The notes: generated by a model not told the origin, from the sequence alone. 64,000 bases of DNA from Cyanophora paradoxa CCMP329 (GCA_004431415.1 QPMI01000652.1:1-64000); one strand, 5' to 3'; shown: positions 1,441 through 45,217, counted from the stretch's first letter. A program made the numbers and translations.

Positions 1441-2877
1441 CCCCGCCCCCTCGCCCGCCCCCGCTCCGCCAGCGCCTCATCCAGGTAGCCCCTCCCGCCT
1501 TCTTCCGCTCTCCTCCGGACGTGACGGCGGCCTCAGATCCGCCTCCCTCCGCGGGGCCGAGCGGGCCGGGAGGCGGCGGCGGGCCGCACGCTGGCGTCGC
1601 CTCCCAAGTCCTGCCCCGCCTCCCCGCTCCCGTCGGCGGCCACCGCGGCGGCCCCCCCGGCGGCCCAGCACGAGATCCCGCCGCTCTCGCCTCCCCGCCC
1701 CCGATCCCTCCCAGGCCCCCGGCTCCGTCCCGTCCCCGTCCCGCCGCACTCCCCGTCGCCCCTCGCGGAGACGCCGGCGGCAGCGGCTGCAGGCGACTCG
1801 GGCGCCGCCAGCCCCTCGCCCTCCCCCTCGGAGGCCCCGCCGCCACGCCCACCGCCCGGCTGGGGCGCCGCCTCCCCTGCGCCCCGCGCCCCGCCGCCCC
1901 GCCGAAGGCCCCCGCGGCCCCCGCGCCCTGCCGAGCCGCCCATCGGCAACCGCCCCAGGCCGGGCGGCGGAGGCGGCTAGGGCGATAGCTATAGGATTCC
2001 GAGCTCTAGGGGCTGGTGGCCTATGTATTGACTCCTCCATTCCCGACTCGGCGAAGCTCCGTACCGCACTGCAGCTGCGGCATGCCATGATGCGTAGTCA
2101 CGGCCATGGCCATGGCCTCGGGATCTCGATCCGCCGCCGTGCGGCCTTCAAGGCTTCGGACTTGGGAGCCATGAATCAGTAGACTCAGTGTGACTTGCAA
2201 TTGGAATTCAATGATTTCCCGAAATTAATATCATAGTATTCACCGTGGCACCAAACTTAAGCTTGAAGATTAAAGGAACTTCGTCGGAAGTCCGACCGTC
2301 GGACGGTCTCGGCCCGCGTCGACGTCGGCCCGGCGGCCGGGGCGGGGGCGCGTACGGCGCTGACTGTCGGCGACTGCGGGCTTCGAATTCAGGCCCGGCG
2401 GCCGCCGGGCCCGGGGCTTCGAGCAATTGCACTGCGGCACTGGCGGCACTGCGGCATGCGCAAGCTGCGAATTCTCAAGTTCTTGAATTGCATACGCGTG
2501 CCTAGGTGCCACCAGAACTGGACCCCCCCCAAAGGAGGCTATTCCGGGGGCCCCTGAACGGAACCAAGGCCGTTTAAGGCATCTCCGAGGCCCAGAGGCT
2601 CAGGAAAAAATACCAGTTCCATACCCGGAGCGGATCCTAGGGTCTCGGGGGGAGGCCCCCCCGGGACCCCCCCGCCCCCAACTCGCCAGGAGAGGCCCGG
2701 GGAATGGAACCGGCGCTCTATTTCAACACTACGAGACCCGCAGACGCTAAATACGCGCTCCCCGCGGCGCCGGGGCGCGCCGGCGGCGCCGGCCGGGGGC
2801 GGATCAAATCTGCGCCCCGAGGCCCCCCGGAGGCTCCGAGAGGGCCGGCCGAGGCCGGGGCGAGGGGCGGAGCCGGC

Positions 2878-2889
2878 CATATATAGGGG
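2878..2889 (+). promoter_or_regulatory. TATA-like box upstream of protease-recombinase gene
   Basis: CATATATAGGGG about 75 nt before ATG 2959, in a very GC-rich background. Confidence 0.5.
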
Positions 2890-2958
2890 CCCGAGCTAAT
2901 AGAAGGTCCACGGGAGCGAGCGGAGAGGCGCAGGGGGCGGGGCGGAGGGCGGGGCGGG

Positions 2959-5689
2959 ATGTTCAGCGTGGTCAAGGACGCCTACGAGGTCGCCGAGTTC
3001 GACGGCCTGTGGGGCCGGGACCGCCTGATCCTGCTGCGCTCCGACGCCGGCCTCGTCGTGCCCGTCGCCGAGCTGCGCCGCATCCTCATCTACGCCCCCG
3101 ATGAGCCGCCGGAGGACCCCGACCGGGCGCTGGCGGACCTGTACCGCGTCCCCTGCAGGCCCGTCGCGAGCGAGGAGACGATCCTGCTGCTCGAGATGCT
3201 CGGCGTGATCCGCCGCGGGGCGCACCGGCCCGACGGGAGCCCGCCGCGCGTCGTCTCCCTCCGCCACGCCGAGCAGATCGTGTGCGAGCGGTGGGACGAG
3301 GACCCCGGGGTGAGCGCGAGGAAGCGGTGCGTCGCCCGCCACATCCTCGCCGCGATCGAGCGCCGCCGGCTCGAGTCGTTCGAGCGCGTCGAGCTCCGCG
3401 TCCTCCGCCTCGGGCCCTCCAGCGCCACCCGCGTCTTTGCCCTCCGCTGCAAGCGCATCGAGGTCCCCGTGAGCGGCGCCCCCGACCAAGCACCGCCCCG
3501 GCGCCCCGCCCCGCCCCGCGCCCCACGCTCACCCGGCCTCAGGACGTCGAGTGGTACGCGCCCATCGCGTCCCTCGCGCAGGCGGCGTACGGCTCCTCGC
3601 GGGACGTGCCCTCGCTGCGGGCCGAGATCAGGCGCAAGCACCCCGACCTCGGGGCCGACTCGCCTTTTCGCTTCGAGGCACGGACCGACGTCGTCGGGCG
3701 GGCCCGCTTCGCCCTCCTCACCAAGGCGCGCGCCCGCCTCCCGCCTCCCGAGCGCGCCCCGGGCGCCGGCTGATCGATATTGTGACCGCCCGCGGCCGGG
3801 GGGTCAGACGCTGACGCTGTACGCCGGGCTGAACGCCGAGGTCGAGGGCGAGGCGACGCGCGGGGCGGCGCGCAAGTGGGGCTTCATCAGCCTCGCCGGC
3901 GCCGAGAGGATCCTCCAGGGCCTGCCGCGCTTCGGGGACGAGCTCCTCGTGCCGTTCCGCCGCCAGCGCCTCGCCCTCGAGGGCGCCGACGCCGCCGAGA
4001 TCGAGGCCGCCGCGCCGCTGCCCCTCGCCCCCGCCCGCCGCATCGCCATCTTTACGAAGCGCGAGTGGCTCACGGTAAGCAGAGGGACGCGCGGGGCCGG
4101 GGCGCGGGGATCGAGGCGGAGGGGCCGGGGGGCGCTGACCGCGGGCGGCGGCGGCAGGACCAGCACATCGCCAACTGCCTCTCGATCGTGCTGGCGCGGG
4201 CCAGCGCGGCGCCCCGCGTCCGAGCCCTGTACCCCATGACGCTCGACATTGCGACGAGCCTCCTCCGCCGCCACGCGCGCGCCAGCCCCGAGAAGCGCCG
4301 GCGCCGCGCCCTGGGGGCGGCGGAAGAGGGGCGCGTCATCCTCTGCCCCGTCTCGGGCGGGCTCGTGCGGCGCGGGTCGGAGCGAACCTGGAGCGCGGGG
4401 GGCCACTGGACGCTCCTCGTGATCTCCGGCGACCTGCGCCGCACCCGCTACTTTGACAGCCTGGGCGCGCGCCCGGACCCGTCGCTGGAGCGGGCGGCGA
4501 AAAAGGCCTTTCCGAACTTTGAGTTCGAGGTCGAGACGCAGCTGCGGCTGCAGGCCGATGGGTACCAGTGCGGCATCTGTGCGCGCGCCGCCGCCGCTCA
4601 GCGAGTGGTACCGGTACGGTGCAAGGGGAAGGGACGCCGACGCACCCGTGCGCGCGCAGGGGTCCTCTACTTTGCGGAGAGCGTGGTGAGCGAGGCGCTC
4701 CTCGGCTTTCCCTGGGACGACGAGCTGCGCACCGGCGCCCTCCACTACCTGCGCACCAAGTCGCCCTCGTACGAGGAGAGAAAGGCGATCAACGGGCGCT
4801 TCATCGCGGGAAAGAGGGAGCACTTTCGGAGCCTGCTCGAGTCGGCGCTCGTCGGCGACGTCTACCTCTTCTGCGAGGCCGACGTCGCCGATCCGGAGCG
4901 CGTGACGCTCCCGCCGCCGGCCGCCGCGGGCGAGGCCGCCGCCGCCGCCGCCGCCGCCGCCGAGGGAGGCCCCGCCGGCGGCGGACGGGGGCCGCTGGTC
5001 ATCTCCTCGTCCTCTTCCTCGTCGTCCTCGTCGTCCGCCCCGTCCGACGAGGCCGACGAGGCCCAAGGCGGGGCCGCGGACGGCGGCGCCGACGGCGAGG
5101 CAGAGGGCCTGGAGCTGGAGGCGGCGCCGGAGGCGAGCGAGGGCGAGGCGAGGGCGAGGGGCCGCAGAGGGCGGGCGGTCGCGCCCGGAGCCGTACGCGC
5201 TGCCGGAGGGCGAGTGGAGCCGCGAGCTGCGGGCGCAGATGAAGCTCTTCGAGGAGTGGAGGACGAGGGCGATCAACCCGGACCGCGCGGGGGCGGCCGT
5301 CGAGCGGAGCACGGCCCTGACGAACGACGTCGGTGAGCGGGCGCGGCGGCGGCGGCGGAGATGCATATGGGCGGGGCGGGGGACGGAGGAAAGGGGGCTC
5401 ACGGGGAATCGACGCAGGGACGGTGGGGCGCTTCCTGGGGTACCTGGCGGCGAGGGAGGAGGTCAGACCGCTCTCGTTCGACGTCTTCTCGCGGGGGGAC
5501 CTGATCGACCTGTGGATGCGGTTCCTGACGTTTCTCAAGGAGGAGAGGAAGCTCACCGCGGGGACGCTGAGCGGCTACACCAGCTCGATCATCATGGCCG
5601 CCGCCTTTGTGCACTCGAGGACGGGCGCCGCGACGGGGAGCGAGGGCCCGCACGCCCGCGCCCTGAAGAACGTCAAGGTCAGAGGCGCT

Positions 5690-5721
<32 letters not shown>

Positions 5722-6689
5722 AGAGGGATCTAGAGAGAGGAGGAGAGGGGCGGAAGAGGGTCGGGGCGGGGGCTACGAACCCGACGCCCGCCCGCCCGCA
5801 GGCGCAGCTGGAAAAGGAGAAGCGGGAGGAGCGCAAGTGGCGGCCGCGGGGCGAGAACTGGGTCGAGTACGAGCAGGTCCTGGGCGCCCGGCTCGCCGCC
5901 CTCGAGCAGTACGAGGGCGCGAAGACGGACTACGAGCGGGCCCAGGCCCTCCGCGAGGCCTGCCTCCTCGGCTTCCTCGCCGTCACGCCGGCCCGCGTCG
6001 GGATCATCCGCCGCCTGCGCGTGGGGGTGAGCCTGCGGCGCGACGCGGGGGCGTGGTGCATCGTCATCGACTCGATGCGGGCGGACGACGGGACGGGGGA
6101 GATGGCCCTCGCGAGCAAGACGGCCCGCTTCCACGGGGCCCTCTCGATCCCCGTCGCCGCCGTCCTGCAGGAGCCGCTCACCCTCTTCGTGGAGCGCTTC
6201 CGCCGCCTCCTCATCCCCGACGGCGCCCCCGACCAGCAGTGGCTCTTCACCAGCTCGAGCGGCGGCGTCCTCAGCGAGAGCGGCTACGGCGCCTGGGTCA
6301 AGCGGGCGCGTCGGAGGGGTGGCGGGGCGGGGCCGGGGCTCACCGCCGCGCCGGCAGGTGCTGGAGCGGTGGACGGGCAAGCCGGTCTCTGCACGCGCCA
6401 TGAGGGCCGTCCTGACGACCTACGTGCGGGAGCGGGCGGCGGCGCACCAGATCGAGGGGACACGGCGGCGGCGGTGATCGAGGGGACGGCCCGCCTCCTG
6501 CAGCACAGCGTCCAGACGGCGACGACGCACTACGACTACGGCGCCCGCGCCCGCCAGGCCGCCGCCGCCGTCGCGTTCTTCGAGATGGCCGCCCAGCAGC
6601 ACGCCGCCCGCCGCGCGGCCGAGGGCGCCGACCGCGAGCGCCTCCCGGCCCGTCCCGCCGCCCGCGGCCGCCGGCTCCTCTGCGGCTCC

Positions 6690-6721
<32 letters not shown>

Positions 6722-7933
6722 CGGGGCGCCGACGGGCCGGACGAGGGGGTACCGGTGGCGCAGCCCGCCGCCGAGCCCGAGCCCGAGCCCCGCGCCGGCG
6801 CCCCGTCTCCCCCTCCTCCTCGTCGTCCACCGCGACGCCGCCGCGCCGCGCAGCGCGGAGGACGGCGCCCCGAAGCCTGCGGAAGAGGATGAGGAGAGCG
6901 ACGGCGGGAGCGGGCGGGCCGCTCGGGAGGCGCGAGCTCGTACTCGGAAGACGGCGAGGATTCCACGGGGAGCGGGCCTCGAGCGGCGGCGAAGAGGGCC
7001 GGAGCAGAAGCGGAGGCGCTTCCCGTGGCAGAAGCAGAACCCGTTCACGAGGCCCGGGATGCAGGTCGAGCGCGACCTCGCGATCGCCGAGGGGAGGTAC
7101 TGCGCCCCGTGCGTCAAGGTGAGGCCCGCCCGCCGTCCGCCCCGCCCCGCCCCGCCCGCCCCTCTCCCGCGGACCGACCCGGCAGCGCCCGCGCGAGCAG
7201 ATCTTCCGCACCGCGGCGGGGTACCAGCGCCACCGGGCGACGTCCAAGGCGCACGGCCGAGGGGCCGGGGCGGGGCGGGGCGGCCGCCGGCGGGGTCCAG
7301 GGCCGCGCCGCGCGGCGCGGGCGGGACGGGGACGGGGAGGAAGAAGAGGAGGAGGAGGGGGAGGAGCAGGTCGGCGGCGAGCCCCCGCGGCCCGCGGGCC
7401 GCTCTGGCACCTGCGCTGGACGTCGGCGTCGCCCTTTCGGGCGGGCCAGGTCGTGGCGGCGCTCACCTCGCACGCGGCGGATCCCCTGCCGCGCCCCGTC
7501 TTTGCCCGCCTCGTCGCGACGGTGCCGCTCCCCTCGGGCGAGACGGAGAACCGCTTCGTCGTGCTCCGGCGCTTCGGGCCCTGTACGCGCCGTCGACCGA
7601 GGGCGGGCCCGGCGACTGGGGCGGCCCCGCGCGCTCGTACCGGTGCAGAGCGAGTCGAGGAACGGCGCCGTCGACGTGCTGACGAAAAGCGAGCGGATCT
7701 TCGACCTCCTCGGCCTGGGCTCCTCCTCGTCGGCGCCGCCGCCGCCGGCGCCGCCGCCGGCCCCGCGGGCCCGGCCCGCGACGAGGAGCGCGAGCGCGGG
7801 CCCCGCGGCGCGGCCGCCCGCCGAAGCGCGGGGCCCGCTCCGCGTAGCCCCTGCGGCCGCCCTCGAGCCGCCCCCGCCTCCCACCAGCTGCAGAGATCGA
7901 GCGCGCGCGGGCTGGGCGCGGCCCGGGAGCTGA
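2959..7933 (+). CDS. Multi-exon protein: unknown N-terminus + Ulp1/C48-like cysteine protease + tyrosine recombinase + C2H2 zinc finger
   Basis: Frame-restoring introns: 3469-3542 GT, 3726-3807 GC, 4075-4157 GT, 4579-4659 GT, 5333-5417 GT, 5678-5801 GT, 6306-6357 GC, 7119-7200 GT. Needs small indels near 5140-5185 and 6456-6459. The last exon and stop are uncertain. Confidence 0.6.
4066..4700 (+). CDS. Ulp1/SENP-like (C48, clan CE) cysteine protease domain
   Basis: Spliced motifs WLT|DQHI, HWTLLVI (His 4404), YFDSL (Asp 4455) and QADGYQCGI|WVL (Gln 4551, Cys 4569) give the full H-D-Q-C set in Ulp1 order. Confidence 0.85.
5190..6560 (+). CDS. Tyrosine recombinase/integrase domain
   Basis: SAM-like N-terminal part (FLTFLKEERKLTAGTLSGY). 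Catalytic motifs in order: TPARVG (Arg 5994), ASKT (Lys 6117), WLF, SARAMR (Arg 6403), LLQHS (His 6504), TATTHYD (Tyr 6531). Confidence 0.85.
5699..5725. repeat. (GA)n microsatellite inside intron
   Basis: GA run within intron 5678-5801. Confidence 0.9.
7098..7254 (+). CDS. C2H2 (U1/JAZ-like) zinc finger split by an intron
   Basis: YCAPCVK|IFRTAAGYQRHRATSKAH after removing intron 7119-7200. Confidence 0.6.
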
Positions 7934-8050
7934 AGAGGTCGGCCGAACTGCGCGTGCGTAAAAAGAGGCCGGCGGGAGGAGACGCGGGGCGGCAAGCTAG
8001 CTGCAGCGCGCGCGGGCGCCGGGGCGCGAGCGCGTGCGACGCCGGCTTCG

Positions 8051-8461
8051 ATGGGGGACGCACCGGGGCCGCCGACGACGACTCCAGCGACGACGCAGTC
8101 GATCCTGGAGCGCGCAGGCTCGCAGCATGCCGTGTACCTGCTCCAGAGCGAAAAGGCGGGCGCCGGCGTGACCTACACCGGCTCCACCAGCTGCCTGGCG
8201 CGCCGGCTCAAGGAGCACCAAACGGGGGCGATCAAGGGCGCGTACACGGCCGGAAGGGGCCCCTGGCGACTCGTGGCTGCGGCGTGGGGCTTTGCAGACG
8301 CCGCCGGCGCGCGTTCGTTCGAGATGCGCGTCAAGAAGCGCTCCGGCGGCGCGAAGCGCAAGCTCCACGCCATGCGCGACATGGCGCATGAGGGTGCGAG
8401 CGCGGGCCTGGCGTTTGGGCTCGCCGAGGGCCTCGTGGGCGGCTGCGGCGAGGTCGGGTGA
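8051..8461 (+). CDS. GIY-YIG endonuclease, SLX1-like
   Basis: VYLL...TYTGST..LARRLKEH..GAIKGAYT..RGPW.LV...GF...A..FE; intronless, 136 aa. Confidence 0.9.
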   Translation: MGDAPGPPTTTPATTQSILERAGSQHAVYLLQSEKAGAGVTYTGSTSCLARRLKEHQTGAIKGAYTAGRGPWRLVAAAWGFADAAGARSFEMRVKKRSGGAKRKLHAMRDMAHEGASAGLAFGLAEGLVGGCGEVG

Positions 8462-9359
8462 GGAAGGCAGGACGGGCCGCGATCGCGCGCCCGAGGCTAG
8501 CCTAGCGGATGAAGAGTCGGATGTAGAACCTTGAAGAAGCGCGAGATGCCGCTCCCGCGATGCTGCCTGCGCTCGCCGGGTACGAGGCTTTAAGCACGGG
8601 GGGGGGGGGAAAGGAGGGGGAGAGGTTGGGGGGGGGAGAGGGGGGGAGGGGGGAAGCGGAGCCACGTTGCGACAACGTCGGTCAGTGTTCGAGACCGGGA
8701 CCCAAGCGGCGCCGGCGGGCCGCAGCTCGCGCTCTGCGATCGGATTTGGAGACGTTATGCGAGAGCGGGTGCCTCCAGCCCGGCGCGGCCGAGCGCAGAT
8801 GCGAATGGCGGGCGATGGGCCGAGCCTCGCGGCGCCCTCCAGCAGGCCGCCCGCCGGCCTGGGCACCGTGCTTCGAACTGCCTCTGCGCCAGGCCTAGGC
8901 TCCTTCCGGTGAGCTGGTGCGCCCTCGAGCTCGCGCGGCCGCCGGCGACGACCGCACACACAGCAGCACAGCAGCACAGCAGCACCCAGCTGTGCAGCGC
9001 GCTCCGCTTACCGTCCAGGCGAACCGCCGGGGCATAGCTCGCGGCGCCGGCGCGGCTCCCCCGCCCCCATGCCTCGGCTCCTCCGATCCCCGTCGACGGC
9101 AAGGCGGCGGCGCCGTCCTGCAGGCCCAAGCTCGGCGCCGCGGAATCGGGTGCGAGGGGCAAGCCAGAGGCCCCAACCCGCCCCCGCCTCTGCAACCGCC
9201 CGACCGCCCGCGCCGCCATGCGCAGCCGCAGTGCCGCGGATCGCGGCGAGCTCAGCGATTCCGAGCGTGCGTGCATCTTCCGGGTGCGGCGGGGCGGCGC
9301 TCCTAGAATTCCCCAGCCCGCCCCTCTCGCAGCCGGCCTCGCGCCGCGCTCACTCGCCC

Positions 9360-9840
9360 CTAACCCCCGTACCCCGCGCAGCGCGCGGTCTACGGCCCTG
9401 TGGCGGATTCCGGGTACGGGCCGTGTACCCCTCTCTGCTCCGGGCGGCGCGCCGCCGACTCTTCCGATCTACGGGTCCGGCCCCTCCCAGCGGTGCCCCG
9501 CCGCGCTCGCCGACCCCCGTACCCCCGCAGCCTGCGCTACACTGGCCGTGGCGCATTCCGGCTACGGACCGTGTACCCCCTCCCTGCGCCGCGGCACCTC
9601 GCGAGGGGCGGCTCGCTCGAGCGGTTCGGCATGCTTCAGAGGCCCAGCGGAACCGACCTCAGGGGGGGGAGCGGCACCGTGCCCCGAATCGACCCGTCGC
9701 GAGGTCAGAGCCGCCCCGCGCCCCTGCCCCTCCCCCTAGACCCCCTCTGCCGCCCCGCCCCTTCTGATTCGGGACGGGGGCGGGGGAATGCAGGAACGAC
9801 CCTGAGGGGGGTAGCGGCACCCTACCCGGAACCGGCCGGG
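9360..9840. repeat. Degenerate locus of the 34-bp core repeat
   Basis: + copies GATTCCGGGTACGGGCCGTGTACCCC (9406) and ATTCCGGCTACGGACCGTGTACCCC (9555), followed by decayed - copies (GAATCGACC near 9686; GGGGTAGCGGCACCCTACCCGGAACC near 9808). Confidence 0.65.
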
Positions 9841-10067
9841 CGGCTCGATGGAGATGCGGCGGTCCCGCGCGCGACGGGGCGGCCCGCTGGGCCCGGCCCG
9901 CCTTAAAGGGAACCCGGCAGCCGCTCTCTCGGGCCAAGGATCGCGGTCCTTCGACCCCCCGCAGACGCGCCCAGGTGCGCCGCCCACGCCCGCGCCCTCC
10001 CCCCTCGGCGACCCCGCCCGCCGGCCCCTCGCTCCGCACCGACGCCCGCGTCTGCGCAGGCGAGAGC

Positions 10068-11962
10068 ATGCCGGGCCGCGCGATCGAGGGCTCCGGCGGC
10101 GCCGGAGCGGTGGTGGCGGCGGCTCGCTCCCCGGCCGTCAAAAAGGCAAAGCAGGGCGGGCGCGGCGGCGGCGGCGGCGGCGGTGGAGGCGGAGGCGGCG
10201 GCGGCGGGCCGACCGAGGGACCCGCCGAGGACGCCGGCGGGGCGCCCGCCCGCAGCAGCAGCAGCAGGAGCGCGAGCACGACGGGGGCTCCGAGGGGCGC
10301 CCCGACGCCGAGCCTGGCGCCGCGGCCGCCGCGCCGCCGGCGCCCCCGGCAAGCCCAAGCGCCCCGCGGTGCGTTCCCCTCTCTCGCCGCCCCGGCCAAC
10401 TCTCATCCCGCCCGCGCCGCGCAGCCCGCGGGACGGCCGGCGGCACCCCCCCGCCCTCTCGGGGAAGCGCGCCAAGCTCTTTGCCGACGGCACCGGTGCG
10501 TCCCGTACCCCCCTCCCCTTTCCCTTTTTTCCCTCCCAGGGCCGCCCGCGCCGATGGGCGTCCCGGGGCGCAGGTCGCGGCGCCGAGGGGGGCGCCAGAG
10601 GCGCCGCGGAAGAGGCGCACGCCGCCGGCTTGGCGGGCGAGCGCTCGGACGGCTCCGGCCATGACGGCGGCAGCGAGGGGGACGGCAGCCAGCGCGAGGT
10701 GGGGCCGGACCCCCCCTCCCCCCTCCCTCCCCGCCCGGTTCGTCCCCTCTGACCGGTCTGCGCGCAGGGCCCCGGCTCGCACGACGAAGAAGACGACGAC
10801 GAAGGCAACGACGAGCGGGGCGACGAGGACGGGGCGGCAGCGACGCCGACGGGGCGACGGACCGCGCCCACGGGCGGGGCGGGGCCGGGGACCGGCCCTC
10901 AGCGCCGAGCTGCGCCGCGCGGCCGGCCTCCCGCCGGCGGTGACGCGGCGGGAGCGGGCGATCCGGGCCCGCTGGGCGCGCGCGGCGGCGCACCGCCGGG
11001 CGGCGGCGGCGCGGGAGGCGCTGGCGGAGCGGCTGCAGTCGACGCTGCGCCCGCGGGCCGAGCGGCTCGAGGCGCGCGCCGCCGAGCTGGGGCCCGAGGC
11101 GGCGGCCGCCGAGGCGGCCCACGTGCGGATGGTGGCGGAGCGGGCGGAGCTGCAGCTCGCCGCCTGCAAGGGCCGCCCGGGGCTCGAGCCCTCGATGCGG
11201 GCGGCGGCGGAGCGGGCGCGGCGCCAGCTCGAGACCGAGGAGCGGCGCGCCGCCCGCGCGCGATCCGCCAAGGCCGCCGCCGTCGCCGCGCGGCGCCGCG
11301 TCGAGGACGCCGAGGAGGCGCTGGAGGAGGACCCGAGCCCGGAGCCGATCTTCACCCCACCGGCCGCCGGCGCCTCCAGCGCCATCTACTGGGTCGCCCT
11401 CGCCGCCGCCCTCGCCCTCGGCGGCCCCGCCGCCGCCGACCCCGACGCCCAGGACCGCGCCGCCGCCGAGGCGGCCGCCGAGGCTGCCGCCGAGGCCGCC
11501 GCCGCCGCCGCCGTCGTCGACTCGTTCTCTTCTTCGTCTCCTCCGGAGGCGAAGACGGCCGCTCCGGCGCCGGCCCCGGAGCCCGGCCCCGCCCCGAGGC
11601 TCCTGCCCACGAGGCCGAGGGCGCCGCCCCTGCAGACGCCTAATCGAGACCCCTCCCCCCCCCCCCTCCCCACCCCCCCCCTCCCCACCCCGCCCCCTCT
11701 CCCTCTTTCTCCAACGACGAACGAAGCGCCTTCAGGACCCCCCGAGACGTTACGGGGTAGATGCAGGCGCGGGGTGGAGGGGGTGGGAGGGGGGGAGGGG
11801 GGAAGAATGCCAAGGGATTCCCGGGCGGCGTCGGGAATCCCGGGTCGAGCCGTCGAGACCGCGGGGTCGATAAAAGGGGTTGCGCGGTGCCATCTCACAA
11901 CACGAGCGTGCACTATCGCCCGAGAAAAGGCCGCCCACCCCCACCAATTCTCGTACCGCTAG
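10068..11962 (+). CDS. Hypothetical multi-exon low-complexity/coiled-coil protein with a hydrophobic segment
   Basis: TTAAAGGG at 9903 and ATG 10068. Candidate introns near 10368, 10496 and 10699. A/E/R-rich helical exon at 10890-11340, then IYWVALAAALAL. The true stop is probably earlier than 11962. Confidence 0.4.
11814..11879 (+). promoter_or_regulatory. Element promoter: GGGATTCCC + GGGAATCCC + GATAAAAGGGG
   Basis: Motifs at 11814, 11833 and 11869; ATG 11971. Confidence 0.75.
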
Positions 11963-11970
11963 AGATACCG

Positions 11971-12960
11971 ATGGCCACGGAGACGACGCACATGGCGGCG
12001 GCGGCGGCGGCGCCCCTTTCCGAGCCGGCGGCGCCCAGGTTGATCGCCGACCTCCCCGACGAGATCGTTCGCATGGTAACGAAGCGGCTCGGGCCCTGGG
12101 ATGCCAAGCGCACCCTGGGGTCTACGAACCGCCGCTTTCGCGACTTGGTCAAAAACGACGACGGCGAGTGGGCGGCCTTGTGCAAGACGCAGCTCGGGAT
12201 CGTGGTTCCCGAAGACGCTCCGCCGGGGACGGCCTACAACGTCTACGCCGGCTTTTTCGCGACGCGCTGCCGCTTGTGCTTTGAGCGCGGCTTCTGGAAG
12301 CCCAGCGAGGAGCCGATGGTGATGGACCCGCTCTTGAACATGCGCCTCTGCTCCACCGACGCCCGCTGCGATCGTACCCCGATGAGCAGCATCTACACCA
12401 TTTCTTATGAATCGAAGAACAGCCACGACAATTACGGGCTATACGGAAACACCATCCCGCACCTAGTCGTCGACGCGGCCGGTCGAACGAATTACGCCGC
12501 CCTCGTCAGGGAGCGGGAGCGCCGCCGCGGCCTCCCCGCCCGCCCAGGCCTCCTCTCCATGGCGGAGATCGTCAAGCGCTACCACCTCGTCCCCCGCCGC
12601 AATACGAAGCACCGTCCGCGCGGGGCCCTCGCCGCGGCCGGCTACGACCCGGAGACGCTGGAGGAGCGCTTCGACCCCGCCGCCGTCCGTGCCTGGCTGG
12701 TCGATGAGGCCGGCGCCGGCATCCCCGATCCAGAGGGGCGCGCACGAAATCTCGAGAAGGCGGCAGAGTACCGCAAGCGCCGCCGCGGACAGTTCGAGCA
12801 GCACACTGCGCCGGCTGCGCATATGCATGCCACCGCTCCGGCTGCGCATGCCACCGCGCCGGCTGCGCCTGCCGCGGGGGCGGCCGGGGGTGGCGTCATG
12901 ATCAGCTATATGAACTATATATACGACGTCGATCTGGGAGAATTCGTTACCGCTCCTTGA
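11971..12960 (+). CDS. F-box protein with Cys-rich zinc motif (paralogue 1)
   Basis: LIADLPDEIVRMVTKRL...LGSTNRRFRDLV...WAALC is an F-box; followed by CRLC...LCSTDARC. Intronless. Confidence 0.8.
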   Translation: MATETTHMAAAAAAPLSEPAAPRLIADLPDEIVRMVTKRLGPWDAKRTLGSTNRRFRDLVKNDDGEWAALCKTQLGIVVPEDAPPGTAYNVYAGFFATRCRLCFERGFWKPSEEPMVMDPLLNMRLCSTDARCDRTPMSSIYTISYESKNSHDNYGLYGNTIPHLVVDAAGRTNYAALVRERERRRGLPARPGLLSMAEIVKRYHLVPRRNTKHRPRGALAAAGYDPETLEERFDPAAVRAWLVDEAGAGIPDPEGRARNLEKAAEYRKRRRGQFEQHTAPAAHMHATAPAAHATAPAAPAAGAAGGGVMISYMNYIYDVDLGEFVTAP

Positions 12961-34640: not shown

Positions 34641-34721
34641 CGTACACGGCTACCAGCAACGCGACGCGTCGACTTTGCATTTTTCATCCGCAGTTCGCCG
34701 CATTCATGTTCATATTGCATC

Positions 34722-35554: not shown

Positions 35555-36491
35555 ATGGCGACGGCCGACGCCGACGGCGCCGCGCGCGCCGGCACCCGCG
35601 GCTGTAATCGCCGCGCCGACGGCGAGCCTTCCGGCATCGCCCTACGCTGCAGGCCGAGCGCCAGAGGGGGCGGGGCCGAGGGCGGGGGCGAGGGCGGGGG
35701 AGATCTAGAGGGCGAGGTCGTCCACGTCTGCTGCGGCCTCGCGAGGACGAGCGTGCTCCTGCAGACCCTCTCCGAGTGCTCCGACGGCGCCGCCGGCACC
35801 CCCGAGCGCCCGCTCGTCGTCGACGTCCCCTTTTCGCCGCGCTCCGTGCGGCGGATCGACGCCGCCGCGCGGGGCGAGTGGCCCGGGACGGCCGCCTGCG
35901 ATCTTGGCGCCTACTTTGAGATGCTGGACGTGCTCGCCTACTTCGACAGCGAGGCGCTCTCCGACGCGACCGCCAGGCGCGGGGGGGGGCGTGGCATCGC
36001 GCAAGGACGCTTTCAAGGAGCTCCTGCGCATCCTGGACGCTCGCTGGGCCCGGGAGCGCCGGCCGGGCCGCCGGCGGCGGGCGGCGCCGGCGCCGGAGCC
36101 GCGCGCGGCGGATCGAGATCGAGATCAAGAGGGGTCCTCCGAGGGGCCTCGGGGGGCGCCCGAAATGGACGCCGATGAGGGCGCCGACGGCGGGCCGAGC
36201 CGCTGTGGCGGCCTCGGGCTCGACGGCGACGTGCACGTGGGGAGCGGGCCCGGACCCGCCGCCCGTCCCCGCGATGGAAAATCGAAGCGAGCCCGCACGT
36301 CCACGGGTCCCGGAGATGAAGAGCACCGAGAATACCGAAGGGGCCACCGAGAAAACCGAGGGGACGAGGAGCGGTCCGCAGAGGAATCTAGGTCGGGCGC
36401 GGCCTCGACACGTGGCGAGCTCTCGGCGGCCCGGATTCCCTCGGCCGTACCCCCGCGCGGGGCGGCCGGGGCCGAGGAATTTCCTATATAA
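35555..36491 (+). CDS. Skp1/BTB(POZ)-like protein, frameshifted at a G run near 35981
   Basis: LARTSVLLQTL...VVDVPF...YFEMLDVLAYFDSEALSDA resembles Skp1 (S..I..ML...VPLP...LFELILAANYLDI..L.D). Continues as ASRKDAFKELLRIL in another frame. Confidence 0.5.
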
Positions 36492-36591: not shown

Positions 36592-36813
36592 ATGGAGAAG
36601 CTCGATCGCGCCCCGCGCACGCCCCGTCGCCCGACGACCAAGAGATGCCAGCACGCCAACGTCTGCGAGACGGAAGAGAGCTCCGCGACGTGCATGGACT
36701 GCGGCGAAGTGGTGTCGACCCTTCCCCCCCTGGTGTCGTGCCCGTCGTACGAACTCACGATGTGCTACGCGAATTCGGGGAGCCCCTTTGAATGCAGAGC
36801 TCGAGGCCTATAG
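36592..36813 (+). CDS. Stand-alone TFIIB-type zinc-ribbon peptide (73 aa)
   Basis: CQHANVCETEESSATCMDCGEVV; TATATAAGGG at 36485. Confidence 0.55.
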   Translation: MEKLDRAPRTPRRPTTKRCQHANVCETEESSATCMDCGEVVSTLPPLVSCPSYELTMCYANSGSPFECRARGL

Positions 36814-37124: not shown

Positions 37125-37164
37125 ATGGCCCCTGCCGCACCCGCCCCGGCTTTTGCCGGCCCCA

Positions 37165-37197
<33 letters not shown>

Positions 37198-38096
37198 TCG
37201 ATTCAAGCCTCGAGCTCGACGACCTCGACCTGGACATCGATCTCGACGATATCGACGGAGAGGTCGGCGGGCTCGAGCTCGCGCCCGAGGCGCAACGGGG
37301 CTGTACCCCCGCCGCCCCCGATCGCGAGCCCGAGCCAGGGGCGCCGCCGGCCGGCGGTGCGGGGGCACGGGGCGCCGGGCCCGCCCCCGTCCCGGGCGCT
37401 GGCGCCTTTGCCGTCGCCGCCCCCACCGGCGCCCAGCGCCCGAAACCAAAGCGGCCCCCCTCGCCGACGAGCCTCGCCCTCGAGGCGCGGCCGCGGCTGC
37501 TGGAGGAGCTCCGCTCCGCCTGCGAGCGGCTGAACCTGCCCCCCGCCGCCGCGACCGAGGCGCTGCGGCAGCTCAAGCTCCGGCCCGAACTCTTCAACGG
37601 GCGGCCCTACTCGCTCCTGGTCCTCGCGGCCCTCTACTCTGCGTGCACCTCGCTGCACATCCCGCGCCGGATCTGCGAGTTCGAGTCGGCCTGCCCCGAG
37701 GGCACGCGGCGCCGCGCCCTCGTCCGGTGCTACAGGGAGCTGCGCCGCAGGGTCCCCGGGGCGCCCGCCCCCGGGACCGACGGGGGCGTGGGGCCCGCCC
37801 ACTACGTGCCCGGGCTGGCGGCCCGCCTCGGCTGCACCCGCGCCCAGACGGCCGACGCCCTCGCGCTGGCCGAGCGGTGGCACAGGGAGAGCAGGGCCCC
37901 CGAGCTCGGGATCCCGCAGATCCGCGCCGCCACCGTCGCCGCTGCGGCGGTGCTCCTCAGCCGCGGGCCGGGGGCCCCGCGGCTCAGCCCGCGGCACGCG
38001 GCCGCCGCCTGGGGCCTCGCCCCCACCCCGCTGTACACGGCGCTCCCCGTGGTCCGCGAGTTTCAGCGGCGGGCCTCGCGCCCGGCTGCGGGCTAA
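37125..38096 (+). CDS. TFIIB-like protein (two cyclin repeats, no Zn ribbon)
   Basis: ELRSACERLNLP...GRPYSLLVLAALYSAC...IPRRICEF...LVRCYREL...PAHYVPGLAARLG...ATVAAAAV; CTATAAAGAGGGG at 37061. Confidence 0.85.
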
Positions 38097-38788: not shown

Positions 38789-40510
38789 CTACTGAGCGCG
38801 GCCGCGGGTCGCGCGGCCGCTCCTGCGGCCCGAGGTCGACGCCTCCTCGCGCTCGGCGCGCTTGGCTTCGTTGCGGGCGCGGTGGAGCTCCTTCTCCTCC
38901 AGCTTCTTCTGCCGGCTGCGCTGCGCCGCCTCGGCCATCTCGGCCGCCGTCGGCGCCCGCACGACGACGGGCTCGACGGGAGCGGCGCGGTCGCTCGGGC
39001 CGGCGAGGGCGACCCCGCGGCGGCCCAGGGCGGCCCGCAGCCCCTCGGCGAGGTCCCGCCGCGCCCCGAGCGCCCGCAGCTCCTCTGGGGCCGCCGCCGC
39101 GCACATCGCCTCCAGGTACTCGCCCCCGACGCCGCGCCCGGCCGCCTGAAGGATGTGCTGGGCGGTGAAGCGGACGCCGACCGCGGCGGCCGCCTCGGGG
39201 ATGCGGGGGTCCGTGCACGTGGAGCGGCATGCGACCCGCCTCGCCAGGGCGGCCCGTGGTAGGGCGCGGGCGGCCGCGTCGCCCATGGCCAGCTGCAGGC
39301 GGGCAAGGAGCGCGTCCTCCCCCTCCGGAAGGTCCTCTGGCACCGCCCGCCGCACCGCCGCCTCCTTAAGCTTCTTGCCGTCGACGGCGCCCGCGGCCGC
39401 CCGCCGCCTCACTCCTGCCAGGGGCGCGTTCCGTTCGGCCACGCGCTGACGCAGGGCCCTGATGCAGCTCGCGTGCGCGGGGTGAGGGCCGAAAAAGGCC
39501 TCCTTGGGCAGCGTGGGCCCGCCCTCAACAAACTCGCCGACGGGCGTCTCCCCCTCCCCGCGGGGAATGGCCACCGCGGCGAAGCGAATGTGTCCCATAT
39601 CTGCATCCACCCCCGAGCAGATGTTGTAGACGTGGATGCTCACGTGAAGCGGGCGCCCCCCGTTCCACGCCGTCAGCTCGGCGGCAAGGCTCGTTTCGAT
39701 CCAGCCGACGACCTCCTCGCTCTTCCGATCCGTCGCCTCGCCGTCGAGCGAGTCCCCCCCGCGGAGCGCCTCCATCCCGACGTCCAACGCCACCACGGCC
39801 CAGATCGAGAGCGGAGAGCCCGACCGCGATCCCGCGCCGAACAACGAGACGGAGCGACCGCGGACGCGATCGCCGGCCCCAAAGGCGAAAAGCCCGAAGA
39901 CGGTTACCTCGCCGCCGATCGCGAGCTGGGGGGCGGCCGGCGGCGGGGTGCGCGCAAGTGCAGGCGGCGCCGGCGCCACCCCTGCAGAGGCCGGCGCCGG
40001 CGCGGCAGGCAGCACCCGACCCTCAACGAGCCAGCCGCGGCTGACGTGCCCCGGCATCTCCAGGTGATGGATGCGGACGATGATTTTGGGGCCCGGCCGA
40101 GGAATGTAATTGACGACAAGGAGCATCGACCCGTCGGCATCGCGCGCCGTCGATCCGGAGGGGCTCAGGTACATGTCCCCCACGGCCTCGTAGCCGCCGC
40201 CGGGGACGAGCTGGGCCCCCATCTTCTCGACCACCTCCACCCGCAGACGCGTCCACTCCTCCTGGGCGCCAGCCGAGAGGCTCGTCCCCTTGATGACGGA
40301 CGCAAAGTGCGACCGCACCATCGGCACGAGGACGGCAAAGCGCGCCGCCCCGCCCGAGCCATCGGCGACGGCGCCGGCCGCGCAGATCGTCCCGATGGCG
40401 CGGCTCGAGCCGACCTTGATCCACGCCTCTGCCCGGCGGACTCCGAAGAGGGCGCGCGCGGCGGCCGACGACGCGTCGACGGCGGCAAAGTTGGCGGACT
40501 CGGTCGACAT
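38789..40510 (-). CDS. Hypothetical 573-aa protein (beta-rich N-terminal half, helical basic C-terminus)
   Basis: Long intronless ORF. Reverse GACAAAAGGG (40624) and GGGAATCCC (40646) point to ATG 40510. Confidence 0.7.
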   Translation of the reverse strand: MSTESANFAAVDASSAAARALFGVRRAEAWIKVGSSRAIGTICAAGAVADGSGGAARFAVLVPMVRSHFASVIKGTSLSAGAQEEWTRLRVEVVEKMGAQLVPGGGYEAVGDMYLSPSGSTARDADGSMLLVVNYIPRPGPKIIVRIHHLEMPGHVSRGWLVEGRVLPAAPAPASAGVAPAPPALARTPPPAAPQLAIGGEVTVFGLFAFGAGDRVRGRSVSLFGAGSRSGSPLSIWAVVALDVGMEALRGGDSLDGEATDRKSEEVVGWIETSLAAELTAWNGGRPLHVSIHVYNICSGVDADMGHIRFAAVAIPRGEGETPVGEFVEGGPTLPKEAFFGPHPAHASCIRALRQRVAERNAPLAGVRRRAAAGAVDGKKLKEAAVRRAVPEDLPEGEDALLARLQLAMGDAAARALPRAALARRVACRSTCTDPRIPEAAAAVGVRFTAQHILQAAGRGVGGEYLEAMCAAAAPEELRALGARRDLAEGLRAALGRRGVALAGPSDRAAPVEPVVVRAPTAAEMAEAAQRSRQKKLEEKELHRARNEAKRAEREEASTSGRRSGRATRGRAQ

Positions 40511-41149
40511 GGCCCCTCTGCAAAAAGGGTTTACGGGTTCCGGCTGTAGGTGCTGCAGCTGTGGCTGCCGTCGTTGTCGACGTGTTTCGACCGCGCAAAT
40601 GCGCCGAGCTCGGCCGCCTCTCTCCCTTTTGTCGACGCGGCAGACGGGAATCCCGGGCGCCGAGAATCCCGAGCGCCATTTTATATAATTATTCGAGCGC
40701 GCGCGCCGCCCTCCGGTATCGTCTACCCGTTGCGCCCGCGCGCCCATCGTGATCATCTACCCTTGGTACCCTGTCCGGGATGCCCCAGCGCCCCCGCCTC
40801 TTCCTCTTCCCCCCGCAAGGCTTTGCATTGACACGGCGCAATTCGAATCCCGAATTCATGTCTGATTTCTTTGCGCAATAGATCACTGATGCATATTTCA
40901 TCGGCGAGAGCGATTTCGTCCGCGCCCGTCGCCGGCCGCGTCCGCTGCGGAGCGGCTGCGGCGGCCCCCGCTGCCGCCCCGGGCCTGCCGGCGCCCGGCC
41001 CCTCGTCCGCCGTCTTGCTTTGCCGGCGGCCGGGGCTGGGAGGCGGGGGAGCCGCTCGGCACCGTGCGGGCAGTTGCCGAGGCCTGCCGCAGCGCGGGCT
41101 CTCGGTGAGACGAGACGCGGGGCGCGGGGCGCAGGTGGGGGGAGGGGTG

Positions 41150-43335
41150 GGCGGGGGTACGGACGGACCGGGACCCGCCCCTGATAGCCCGCCTGGTCGA
41201 TTCCGGCTACGGCGCCTGTACCCCCTTCGACGGTCGCGGGGCCGAGTCCTGCCGCAGCGCGGGCTCTCTGTGAGACGAGACGCGGGGCGCGGGGCGCAGG
41301 TCGGGAGAGGGGAGGGCGGGGGTACGGACGGACCGGGCCCCGCCCCTGATAGCCCTCCTGGTCGATTCCGGCTACGGCGCCTGTACCCCTTCAACGGCCG
41401 CGGGGCCGAGTCCTGCGGGCGCGCTCTGTGAGACGAGACGCGGGGGCGCGGGGCGCAGGCGGGGGGAGGGGTAGGGCGGGGGTAAGGACGGACCGGGGCC
41501 TGTCCCTGATAGCCCGCCTGGTAGATTCCGGCTACGGCGCCTGTACCCCCTTCGACGGCCGCGGGGCCGAGTCCTGCCGGCGCGCTCTGTGAGACGAGAC
41601 GCGGGGCGCGGGGCGCAGGTCGGGAGAGGGGAGGGCGGGGGTACGGACGGACCGGGCCCCGTCCCTGATAGCCCTCCTGGTCGATTCCGGCTACGGCGCC
41701 TGTACCCCCTTCGACGGCCGCGGGGCCGAGTCCTGCCGGCGCGCTCTGTGAGACGAGACGCGGGGCGCGGGGCGCAGGTCGGGAGAGGGGAGGGCGGGGG
41801 TACGGACGGACCGGGCCCCGCCCCTGATAGCCCTCCTGGTCGATTCCGGCTACGGCGCCTGTACCCCCTTCGACGGCCGCGGGGCCGAGTCCTGCCGGCG
41901 CGCTCTGTGAGACGAGACGCGGGGGCGCGGGGCGCAGACGGGGGGAGGCGGAGGGGGGAAGCGAGGGGTACGGACGGACCGGGCCCGTCCCTGATAGCCC
42001 GCCTGGTCGATTCCGGCTACGGCGCCTGTACCCCTTCCACGGCCGCGGGGCCGAGTCCTGCGGGCTCTCTGTGAGACGAGACGCGGGGCGCGGGGTGCAG
42101 GTTGGGGGATGGAGAGGGCGGGGGGTACGGACGGGCCGGGCCCCGTCGCTGATAGCCCTCCTGGTCGATTCCGGCTACGGCGCCTGTACCCCCGTCGACG
42201 GCCGCGGGGCCGAGTCCTGCGGGCTCTCTGTGAGACGAGACTCGGGGCGCGGGGTGCAGGTTGGGGGATGGAGAGGGCGGGGGTACGGACGGACCGGGCC
42301 CCGCCCCTGATAGCCCTCCTGGTCGATTCCGGCTACGGCGCCTGTACCCCCGTCGACGGCCGCGGGGGCCGAGTCCTGCGTGCCTGCGTGCCGCGGGCGC
42401 CGAGTGAGCGAGGGCGGGGGCGCGGCGAGGGGGCGAGAGGCTCAGGGGGGTACACACGCCGTAGCCGGAATCGACCAGGCCGCCCCTACCACGAGCCTGC
42501 TGCTGCGGGCCGCACGGGGGAAAGGATGAGCGAGGGCGGGGCGCGGCGAGGGGGCGAGAGGCTCAGGGGGGTACACACGCCGTAGCCGGAATCGACCAGG
42601 CCGCCCCTACCACGAGCCTGCTGCTGCGGGCCGCACGGGGGAAAGGATGAGCGAGGGCGGGGCGCGGCGAGGGGGCGAGAGTCTCGGGGGGGTACGCACG
42701 CCGTTGCCGGAATCGACCAGGCCGCCCCTCCTCTGAGCCTGCTGCTGCGGGCCGCACGGGGCGCTGGGTGGGCGGGGGCGGGGCGCGGCAAGGGGGGCGA
42801 GAGGCCCAGGGGGGTACACACGCCGTTGCCGGAATCGACCAGGCCGCCCCTACCGCGAGCCTGCTGCGGCGGGCCGTGCGGGCCGCCGAGTGAGCGAGGG
42901 CGGGGGCGCTCGAAGGGGGCGAGAGGCCTAAGGGGTACACACACCGTAGCCGGAATCGACCAGGCCGCCCCTACTGCGAGCCTGCTGCCGCGGGCCGTAC
43001 GGGTCGATGGGTGAGCGAGGGCGGGGCGCGGCAGGGGGGCGAGAGGCTCGGGGGGGTACGCACGCCGTAGCCGGAATCGACCAGGCCGCGTCTACCACGA
43101 GCCTGCTGCTGCGGGCCGCACGGGGGAAAGGATGAGCGAGGGCGGGGCGCGACGAGGGGGCGAGGGGCTCGGGGGGGGGGTACACACGCCGTAGCCGGAA
43201 TCGACCAGGCCGCCCCTACTGCGAGCCTGCTGCCGCGGGCCGTACGGGTCGATGGGTGAGCGAGGGCGGGGCGCGGCAGGGGGGCGAGAGGCTCGGGGGG
43301 GTACGCACGCCGTAGCCGGAATCGACCAGGCCGCC
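41150..43335. repeat. Head-to-head core array 3 (8 A units on +, 8 B units on -)
   Basis: A cores 41191...42317 (period about 158-167); reverse B cores 42447...43298 (period about 121). Confidence 0.95.
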
Positions 43336-45217
43336 CCTACTCTGAGTCAGCGCTGCGAGCCGAGCGGGCCGCCGAGCGAGCGGGGGCGGGCGCGTAAGAG
43401 GAGCGGGGAGGATTGGGGAGGAGAGGGGGGGGGGGGGGGGGGGGGGGAGATCGGCCGTACAAGGAACCGGCCTCGACGCCTGTACCGTGCGCGAGGGGCG
43501 CCGCGAGCGAGCCAAGGGGCCGCGTTTCGAGACGGGCAAACTGCAGCCTGGGATCCGCCGGCGCGCTGCGCGTGCATGAATCGTAAGGGGCGCCGGCGGC
43601 GCGCCGCGCACGCGCCCGCGCGGCGCGGCCGTGGGCCCGCCGTCGAGCTTGCGTCTGCGAGCGCGGGAGCTTCGCGGGGCCAGCGGGCGCCGCTTCTGCA
43701 GCTCTTCCGAACGCGCGCCCGTGCAAAGAGAGGGGCAGACGTAGCGCCACGCCCTCGGGCGCTGCGAGGATGGATGTCAGGCCATGATCAAGCGCGCGCG
43801 ACGTTGCCGACGCGGCGGGCGAGGCTGACGGCCACGCGCGCGCCAAGCAGGAAGCAAGCAACGCACCCACGACACCCAAGGGCGCACATCAGGCCACGCG
43901 CACATGCACGCCTGAGCCACCGCAAACCAAGTCGGGCGGCGGCCGCGCACGGCGGTCAGCTCGAGCGGCTGGACGCGGTCGAAGAACGCTCCGGCATCCT
44001 AGCAACCGTGCAGTCGAAGCTTTGCGCTTCTTGAAAGAGGCGCGCAGCTCCGCCACGGCAGGGTCGGCAAACGCCCAAACGCGAGGCTCTAGATCTCGCG
44101 ATTGGGCTCGAGGAGGTCTCAACTAAGCCACGTGCACCAGAGGCTCGCGAGAGCCCGCTGGCTCGCCGTGCCGGCCCGTGGGCCGACCTGTCTCTGTATC
44201 TGGGTATCCCCCTTCGTGCAACGTCGCACGATCGACGGCGACGCTCGCGCGGCCCGCGTCTGACCCCCACGTCGCCTATTTGGATGCATAGCGAGGGAGG
44301 ATACGAGAGCGCATGTGCCCGCGGCGCGCTCCCGGGCCCGGACGCGCCGCCTCGGCTTTGACGGGCCGGTTTGCGGAGCCAGGGCGTGTAGGTCGCTCTA
44401 GCGCAGCATCGATAGCCTAAATGCACATCAAAATCACTTTTCATGCGGCACTGGCGAGCCGCGCGCCCGCACAGCGACTGTCGCACCGAGGCTGGCTTCC
44501 TTCTCGCTGCCGGCGCCCGCCCTCGAGCTCGACGTGCATGCGCAGGCCTAGGGCGAGCTATCTGTGCAGCGCCAGAGGTGCTTGACACTGCGGCGCGTGC
44601 GTCTACCGCGAGGGACACCGGCGAGCCTAGGCCTCGCCGCCGAATCGATATCAAGCCCAAGCTGCAAGTTAAGAGCGCGAGAAGCGCGGGCGGTACTCGT
44701 ATGCGAGATCTAGAAGGCTGGAAAAGGGCGGCCGTGGAGACGTCGGCGAGCTCGAGAGAGACGCATGCGCAGTTTGCGTCGCTAGAAACGGATAGGAACG
44801 GTTGCTCGGGTCGTCCAGAGTCAAGGATCGCGTACACGTACGCGTAGCACTGCCCACGTACGCGTGCCACAGTGCACCCGCGCGCGCCGCCGGCCGGTGA
44901 CCGGCCGCGGGCCTCGAGGCTCGGACGTCGACCTTGCAATTGAACGTTAATTATATAACAAGCTCGCGCGTGGACGCTGCAATAGCTGCGCGCGGTAGAC
45001 GCACAAACCTCCTTCGGCCCCGCGCGTTAACGTTTAAGACAGCTAGGTCCGTGGCGCATGCATGCGCTGGGGCGCATTTTGGGGGGTACGTAAACTCGGC
45101 GCGCCGATTCGCTCGCCGCCGCCCCGCACCTTGTCGCGGAGGCCCGTCTAGGGGCCGTGGTGGCTTGCAGACTCGGTTTTAGCCCGCTGGCGAACCGCCG
45201 CGGAGCCAGCGCCTGAA

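Follow-up and report, generated by a model that had tools for sequence, protein, structure and literature searches.

What is the block of about 42 kb that lies beside an apparent host gene in a 64,000-nucleotide stretch of Cyanophora paradoxa CCMP329 DNA (GCA_004431415.1, QPMI01000652.1:1-64000; hereafter the window), the genes of which were traced to this alga by exact protein look-ups in EukProt models? We found it to be a real, multi-copy and well-organised mobile element that matches the full definition of none of the families tested. It has a recognisable left end and carries primase and helicase motifs, a TFIIB gene, a promoter word and arrays of a 34-bp repeat. The reading we prefer, to which we give a probability of roughly 55%, is that of a capsid-less integrating element, inserted and excised by a recombinase and copied as a circle by a primase-UL9 helicase.

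The block is present more than once. The long open reading frame (ORF) at 19308 has two database matches, both EukProt models: P0001, with 100% identity across 98% of the query, and P0002, which lies on another contig and is 96% identical. Seven models on contig tig00020509 follow the order of the window, from the lead gene (g9764) through F-box (g9762), RING (g9757), helicase (g9756), a 143-residue orphan (g9753) and TFIIB (g9750) to a 573-residue orphan (g9749), and the six of them that were compared with window proteins are 95-99% identical. Five models on tig00021536 (g22234, g22236, g22238, g22239 and g22241) are also collinear with the window and, together with a shortened lead gene (tig00021535_g22231), are nearly identical to it, with many insertions and deletions. 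C. paradoxa has been described as more likely haploid (PMC6704402), which makes it unlikely that the second gene set is an allele. At least two collinear, near-identical gene sets of the block are present in C. paradoxa, and the single-copy state that an earlier, sequence-only reading of this DNA had held out as grounds for rejection is contradicted by the sets on other contigs.

The left end was located by comparing positions 1-19900 with contigs from four read runs, three of DNA type (of 15 such) and one, X16, guessed to be RNA; the placements discussed are the 32 listed of about 67,700. The features at the two ends are as follows.

1 to 1990, plus strand: host sequence outside the element, the 3' portion of an EDEM3-like gene with introns (weak GH47 and PA fragments; low-depth contigs)
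2493 to 2502, plus strand: left copy of a candidate 10-bp terminal direct repeat, adjoining the inferred left boundary (word recurrence)
2504 to 2533, no strand: left boundary zone of the multi-copy block (contig break and depth step)
44859 to 44868, plus strand: candidate right copy of the 10-bp direct repeat (word recurrence; right end unverified)

A flank contig spanning 1477-2533 stops at the identical base in runs X1 and X4, and depth rises from 82.8 in the flank contig to 300.8 at position 2700 in X1 (3.6x) and from 56.7 to 183.5 in X4 (3.2x). Further inside the block the ratio to the flank is 3.1-5.4 in X1 and 2.1-3.4 in X4 (six listed contigs each), contig depth being a rough and GC-biased measure of copy number and X1 possibly being the window's own source. 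The 31-letter words at the contig break suggest that the first base common to the copies lies near 2504. Thus the left bound of the sequence-only reading holds, whereas its right bound at 44300 was not confirmed. Its EDEM3-like neighbour is weakly supported by fragments of a GH47 C-terminus (E 0.23) and a PA domain (E 0.033) in 1-1340. Because collinear copies lie on other contigs and depth steps up at the left end, mobility of the block as a unit is supported, and to that extent so is the earlier claim of a mobile integrative element.

For the exact termini there are only leads. The 10-bp word ending at 2502 recurs once, and a match as long is found at 87 of 2401 background positions (3.6%), so that we treat it as a lead only. 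A 13-bp direct repeat at 2433 and 44444 (E 0.25) was not preferred as the ends, since it lies 60 bp outside the contig break. No terminal inverted repeat was found, and three ORFs at 49-54 kb have no exact database protein and gave no aid in placing the right end.

Could the block be a piece of an inserted giant virus that is now inert and was multiplied by segmental duplication? TFIIB, GIY-YIG, F-box and RING genes, all found here, are typical of large DNA viruses. The AEP-UL9 type of helicase is another such gene (PMC11253617), and giant endogenous viral elements (GEVEs) have been reported in the alga (PMC12344493). We nonetheless regard this as very improbable: the depth step lies about 450 bp before a recombinase-like gene with single-copy flank adjoining, the copies start with the same gene and agree in gene order, the family scans of the block described below matched no gene for polymerase B, RNA polymerase or a capsid, and one contig has a clean GT-AG skip.

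The first gene and its neighbour bear on how such an element might move.

2959 to 7850, plus strand: lead gene, Ulp1/C48 and tyrosine-recombinase-like (exon map against EukProt model P0019)
8051 to 8461, plus strand: GIY-YIG (SLX1-like) nuclease (E 1.1e-8)

Starting about 450 bp inside the left boundary, the lead gene has eight short predicted GT-AG introns of 64-124 nt in the map against P0019 and lacks the promoter word GGGAWTCCC upstream. Its protein begins with an N-terminus of no assignment, followed by an Ulp1/C48 domain (about 4400-4700), a recombinase-like domain (about 5190-6575), an acidic region and a C2H2-like finger. The C48 domain (E 0.0052; E 6e-4 to a solved deubiquitinase) has the residues H392, D409 and C447; it and the introns are additions to the earlier account of this gene. 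In the recombinase region, residues R828, K869, R944, H978 and Y987 of P0019 stand in the canonical tyrosine-recombinase order. An RKHRY pentad is described for tyrosine recombinases (PMC10104507). The Atlas language-model neighbours of the region include unnamed clusters at 0.97, most with a Preplasmiviricota label, and one cluster at 0.96 in which 17% of members carry Phage_integrase. Motif order and language-model features together give moderate support for a recombinase. There was no DUF3435 match at E up to 1 or 10 and no DUF3504 or GCR1_C match; a plasmid match (E 2e-3) is confined to residues 1-115 of the region, and a single-sequence structure model had a confidence of 43.6, with an uninformative fold search. 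A second apparent skip within the lead gene in X16 was not counted as splicing, as it misfits the predicted intron sizes and its contig keeps one predicted intron. Two EukProt models join the GIY-YIG ORF to the lead gene, and in one it stands alone.

At the centre of the block lies the putative replicase.

19308 to 24795, plus strand: archaeo-eukaryotic primase (AEP) fused to a UL9-type superfamily 2 (SF2) helicase, with a long C-terminal region (profile, Atlas and motifs)

With a profile built from six family members, the herpesvirus origin-binding protein UL9 was the top match and filled four of five rows (best E 1.6e-4). This makes UL9 the closest solved structure, and Atlas places the helicase at 0.97 to Herpes_ori_bp clusters, bearing out the central UL9-type primase-helicase of the sequence-only reading. 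The AEP motifs (D126/D128, H207, D304) are kept in all three relatives with a clear AEP region (P0001, P0025 and P0026), are degenerate in P0030 and lie beyond the span of models P0024 and P0027; helicase motifs I-VI can be recognised across subfamilies. A HMMER search with the helicase domain against 1.84 billion representatives returned 12 matches, ten of them C. paradoxa models on nine contigs; the other two, LamG and Ig repeat proteins, we set aside as spurious. The family comprises at least five groups, all of them in C. paradoxa, which in long alignments share about 27-30% identity. That the AEP motifs are kept in these three relatives, and the helicase motifs across subfamilies about 30% identical, points to long selection for function. 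No relatives outside the alga were found in viral contigs, metagenome contigs or phages, the viral and metagenome searches reaching close relatives only. A weak CyRepA1 match (E 0.013) is a lead only. Two models of different subfamilies, P0027 and P0024 (g1925 and g1940), lie 15 gene numbers apart on contig tig00000540 and may represent tandem or nested elements. The remaining helicase models include g1902 (tig00000526), g17967 (tig00021072), g10409 (tig00020539) and g4819 (tig00000104). Single-base gaps of the window against read contigs, at homopolymers within 1-19900, make frame slips in that stretch likely assembly errors; the one slip in the helicase gene, near 24.17 kb, lies outside it.

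These genes allow another account, in which a Crypton- or Starship-like transposon has taken up viral DNA, much as piggyBac and a herpesvirus are fused in Teratorn (PMC6431247), and the primase-helicase and arrays ride along with no role in replication. The lead gene is indeed unlike the rest in its introns, its missing promoter word and its first position, and some CryptonS/F elements have an Ulp1-related C48 peptidase and short direct repeats at their ends (PMC3212892). A word search found only two recombinase models versus ten helicase models, yet this search is insensitive to relatives that are 30% identical. The missing DUF3435, DUF3504 and GCR1_C matches argue against a Crypton or Starship core, and a helicase with intact motifs and at least five subfamilies in one genome is unlike passive cargo. 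We consider this account improbable.

If the primase-helicase acts on the element itself, where would it load? The candidates are copies of the 34-bp core, located by a core scan.

9407 to 9579, plus strand: two diverged core copies
17529 to 18198, no single strand: array 1, two type-B units on plus, then three type-A units on minus, head to head
25028 to 28385, no single strand: array 2, 14 type-A units (137 bp) on plus and 12 type-B units (124 bp) on minus
34427 to 34660, minus strand: two stray core copies
41101 to 43340, no single strand: array 3, eight type-A units (159 bp) on plus and eight type-B units (121 bp) on minus

All 51 copies lie between 9407 and 43322, with none in the rest of the window, so the repeat is as particular to the block as had been claimed. 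The arrays hold 47 of them and four are strays; type-A and type-B units meet head to head in every array (2+3, 14+12 and 8+8), and array 1 is inverted relative to arrays 2 and 3. Herpesvirus origins are a model for head-to-head helicase loading sites, and by analogy the arrangement would suit bidirectional loading. Recombination sites, enhancers and partition sites are possible alternatives. As RNA the arrays gave no tRNA and five Rfam rows, all far below the gathering score; four array units show no more stable folding than shuffled sequence (z 0.6-1.3), and two stray units gave z -1.7 and -2.3. An 18-base core pattern had three single matches in viral contigs, about the chance level. In arrays 2 and 3 the plus strand is G-rich in each half and has 25 G-quadruplex-like patterns, against none for the minus strand.

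The core consists of 6-bp imperfect inverted arms around a 7-bp spacer, in which types A and B differ. This form, and the inversion of array 1 against arrays 2 and 3, an arrangement that brackets the RING and helicase genes, would fit sites of the recombinase in two spacer classes, used in inverting or excising internal segments rather than as origins. Against this, the arms match at only five of six bases in most copies, the RING-helicase segment is inverted in neither of the two other gene sets, and no core lies at the left end. Such a role seems unlikely to us; it concerns the arrays only and is otherwise compatible with an integrating, self-copying element.

The block also appears to have its own transcriptional equipment.

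11814 to 40670, no strand: dispersed promoter palindromes GGGAWTCCC (motif scan)
36592 to 36813, plus strand: 73-residue Cys/His ORF with its own promoter word (promoter motif; zinc-ribbon likeness by eye)
37125 to 38096, plus strand: TFIIB core of cyclin-type repeats, lacking the zinc ribbon (E 1.4e-7; 2.5e-4 in a second search)

Exact copies of GGGAWTCCC number 17 in the 41.7 kb inside the block and zero in the 22.3 kb outside (200 shuffles: mean 0.7, maximum 5), in agreement with the promoter motif particular to the block that had been reported from the sequence; four copies with one mismatch lie outside. The word stands 14-79 nt upstream of a TATA-like A-rich word, with the start codon about 57-125 nt further. 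With one flank mismatch allowed, 10 of 13 genes defined independently of the motif have it in the 260 nt upstream, versus 75 of 605 ATGs (12%; p 1.7e-7). The three genes lacking it are the lead, GIY-YIG and RING genes; four further small ORFs chosen by the promoter motif were excluded from this count. The TFIIB and the SLX1-like GIY-YIG nuclease are indeed encoded in the block, as had been proposed. The 73-residue ORF has no family match in profile scans; judged by eye, it may supply the zinc ribbon of a TFIIB split over two genes, each behind its own promoter word. Upstream of RING, an X16 contig skips a 91-nt GT-AG stretch (19012-19102, minus strand), weak evidence of transcription given that X16 is RNA by guess. 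A 44-bp tandem duplication (32890-33005) lies directly upstream of a promoter palindrome.

Does the block encode a virion? The remaining genes bear on this question.

10068 to 11640, plus strand: probable intron-containing low-complexity gene, no GGGAWTCCC upstream (sequence reading; no family match)
11971 to 12960, plus strand: F-box protein 1 (PF00646, E 2.3e-4; copies on two other contigs)
13525 to 14541, plus strand: F-box-like paralogue 2 (53% identical to F-box 1 of the other contig)
15501 to 15869, plus strand: small acidic protein 1 (exact EukProt model; paralogue of the 33145 ORF, E 4.6e-10)
16472 to 17116, minus strand: 214-residue orphan (EukProt model)
18254 to 18934, minus strand: RING-finger protein (profile match)
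30598 to 30951, plus strand: small ORF (chosen by promoter motif; not an exact EukProt model)
31411 to 31842, plus strand: 143-residue orphan (97% identical copy on the other contig)
32363 to 32602, plus strand: 79-residue ORF (chosen by promoter motif)
33145 to 33486, plus strand: small acidic protein 2 (paralogue of the 15501 ORF)
34000 to 34290, minus strand: 96-residue ORF (chosen by promoter motif)
35555 to 36178, plus strand: 207-residue orphan, BTB/Skp1-like by eye only (no family match)
38789 to 40510, minus strand: 573-residue orphan, the only intron-free unassigned ORF of capsid-protein size (ORF and copy on the other contig)

Among 542 six-frame segments of at least 40 residues in 2500-44500, the one Walker A motif is the helicase's own, so a packaging ATPase appears to be absent from this interval. 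Scans of the block with Pfam, PHROG and NCBIfam matched no family B polymerase, RNA polymerase or capsid gene, and neither protein-primed polymerase B (pPolB) nor a DDE transposase was found. HUH endonuclease, VLTF2 and VLTF3 gave no match in these general scans, which used no dedicated profiles for them and leave several orphans. The unannotated gaps in 2500-44500 hold no capsid-sized ORF of ordinary composition. The 573-residue orphan has no homologue beyond its own copy and no family match, and its single-sequence model (predicted local distance difference test, pLDDT, 41.7) gave uninformative fold searches. Of the sequence-only reading's statement that capsid, packaging ATPase and family B polymerase are missing, the ATPase part stands and the polymerase was not found, whereas the capsid is only unrecognised.

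At this point an endogenous virus or a satellite has to be considered, with a coat encoded by an overlooked gene (the 573-residue orphan, or one beyond the right end) or borrowed from a helper among the same alga's polinton-like or giant viruses. The size fits mriyaviruses (35-45 kb) and some Yaraviridae have an AEP-UL9-like helicase fusion (PMC11253617); the Atlas neighbours of the recombinase are mostly Preplasmiviricota-labelled; Polinton-like viruses (PMC12220804) as well as the GEVEs (PMC12344493) are reported in this alga; and the N-terminal half of the orphan is predicted to be strand-rich (pLDDT under 50). Against a virus or satellite stand the missing packaging-ATPase Walker A motif, the lack of a capsid-sized ORF in the gaps and the orphan itself, which is without homologue and ends in helices and a charged basic tail. 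On balance we think this explanation rather unlikely.

Among the smaller genes, the two acidic proteins have in common a repeat unit of 23-31 residues, present twice in protein 1. The 214-residue orphan gene (16472-17142) has a diverged relative in X2, X4 and X16, with an identity of about 87% in X16, which suggests that the genome contains other, related elements. Towards the right end of the window, a gene with introns spans 46027-48120; it has two lysine-rich exon blocks that nearly repeat each other, and its C-terminal globular part lacks a Pfam match. From 48600 to 64000, GC falls to 0.56 and there are broken coding pieces on the minus strand, among them an AAA ATPase piece (53274-54122, E 1.4e-4) and a weak PD-(D/E)XK piece (60163-60699, E 0.029).

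How would a capsid-less integrating element work? The recombinase-like lead protein would insert and excise it. Once excised, the circle would replicate in the nucleus through the primase-UL9 helicase, which is predicted to load at the head-to-head arrays, with host polymerases carrying out bulk DNA synthesis. In the integrated state the intron-rich lead gene would be expressed in the manner of a host gene. A second programme would consist of the intron-free genes preceded by GGGAWTCCC and TATA, for which RNA polymerase II would use the TFIIB of the element. F-box, RING and Ulp1 proteins may tune host ubiquitin and SUMO control, and new copies would arise when the circle re-integrates. Its probable ancestor is a polinton-like or mriyavirus-like virus, of which the replication-integration module was kept and the capsid genes were lost.

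Several observations weigh against this account. The raised depth that had been anticipated was found, yet three or four integrated copies alone account for the ratios (2.1-5.4 need no episome), and the depth of three cultures gives no sign of a large amplification or episomal pool. Neither a circle nor an empty site nor the right end was seen, reads having been compared over 1-19900 only. The third gene set, being nearly identical to the window and rich in indels, could reflect recent copying or duplication in the assembly. The tyrosine recombinase that the sequence-only reading placed in the first gene is backed by motif order and Atlas (0.96-0.97), but the domain matched nothing in Pfam, PHROG, NCBIfam, PDB sequence or fold searches and the lead protein has Arg at the usual histidine of H-x-x-R. 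The array centres lack an A/T-rich unwinding element, the privacy of the promoter word was checked against 22 kb of flank only, and the capsid is unrecognised rather than excluded, the 573-residue orphan being a candidate that may yet prove to be one.

A bolder claim, which we hold only tentatively and think doubtful as yet, is that of a new class of nuclear integrative replicon: a capsid-free family of at least five lineages in one glaucophyte, with recombinase integration, circle replication from iteron-like arrays that a herpesvirus-type origin-binding helicase-primase would read, and an RNA polymerase II programme of its own based on a split TFIIB and a private palindromic promoter. To our knowledge, large self-copying eukaryotic DNA elements are nearly always capsid-bearing viruses, and the large capsid-less elements driven by a recombinase that we know of, the Starships, have no replicase of their own. 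If true, a recombinase, replicase and transcription factor combined in an element lacking a coat would fill this gap as a nuclear counterpart of bacterial integrative plasmids. It would also offer a compact, culturable system, with 51 candidate sites, for what UL9-type primase-helicases recognise outside herpesviruses, and possibly a site-specific integration and expression tool for the glaucophyte.

How does the block compare with known systems? Polinton-like viruses (Polisuviricotina) share with it a recombinase, an AEP primase-helicase, GIY-YIG, integration into protist genomes and repeats bracketing the replicase (10.64898/2026.10.13.758929; 10.64898/2026.06.19.733378). In the first of these sources the tyrosine recombinase is paired with PolA or AEP replicases, with AEP-SF2 fusions in a sizeable minority of cases, and its section 13 proposes that autonomous replicase modules exist. 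In contrast to these viruses, the core of which is capsid and ATPase (10.64898/2026.06.19.733378), the block has no A32 ATPase in 2500-44500 and no recognised major or minor capsid protein, but it has TFIIB, 6.3 kb of bipartite arrays and an intron-rich, Ulp1-fused lead gene, and it slightly exceeds their 14-40 kb range as given there. The Mriyaviricetes, in particular Yaraviridae with SF2_hel, resemble it in size (35-45 kb), in having no DNA polymerase, in the AEP with a UL9/R8/F1055L-like helicase and in predicted nuclear replication; they differ in encoding capsid, ATPase, VLTF2/3 and HUH, none found in the block, and in lacking integration genes, whereas the block is led by a recombinase-like gene (PMC11253617).

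Cryptons (PMC3212892) and fungal Starships (PMC10104507) likewise have a recombinase as first gene, with an Ulp1-type peptidase in some Cryptons, and are expected to end in short direct repeats rather than long terminal repeats, for which the block offers its one 10-bp candidate. Unlike them, it has no DUF3435/DUF3504 match, has its own replicase, TFIIB and promoter code, and resides in a non-fungal host. Transpovirons and the proposed autonomous replicase modules also combine replication and integration genes without a morphogenetic module, but as described there they consist of pPolB and a DDE transposase, or of lone AEP genes (10.64898/2026.10.13.758929); the block is far larger and has a recombinase and a transcription module. 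Latent giant viruses offer further parallels in a recombinase near one end, minimal junction homology and two gene classes: phaeoviruses integrate by a terminal recombinase (PMC13236599), and a punuivirus sets intron-rich latency genes against genes driven by a promoter motif (10.64898/2026.10.09.758095). These differ in being large, complete, virion-making viruses. From endogenous elements of Nucleocytoviricota it differs in that no family B polymerase, RNA polymerase subunits or ATPase was found and TFIIB alone is present.

No description of the block was found in the literature surveyed; supplementary tables of endogenous viruses and a 2023 survey of protist genomes, both outside that coverage, could list its loci. 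The 'new class' of the sequence-only reading is too strong as it stands, because the pairing of recombinase and AEP in polisuviruses (10.64898/2026.10.13.758929) and the AEP-UL9-like fusion in some Yaraviridae (PMC11253617) have already been reported. What is new is the combination: an element with no recognisable capsid module that unites TFIIB with large bipartite arrays and a promoter word of its own.

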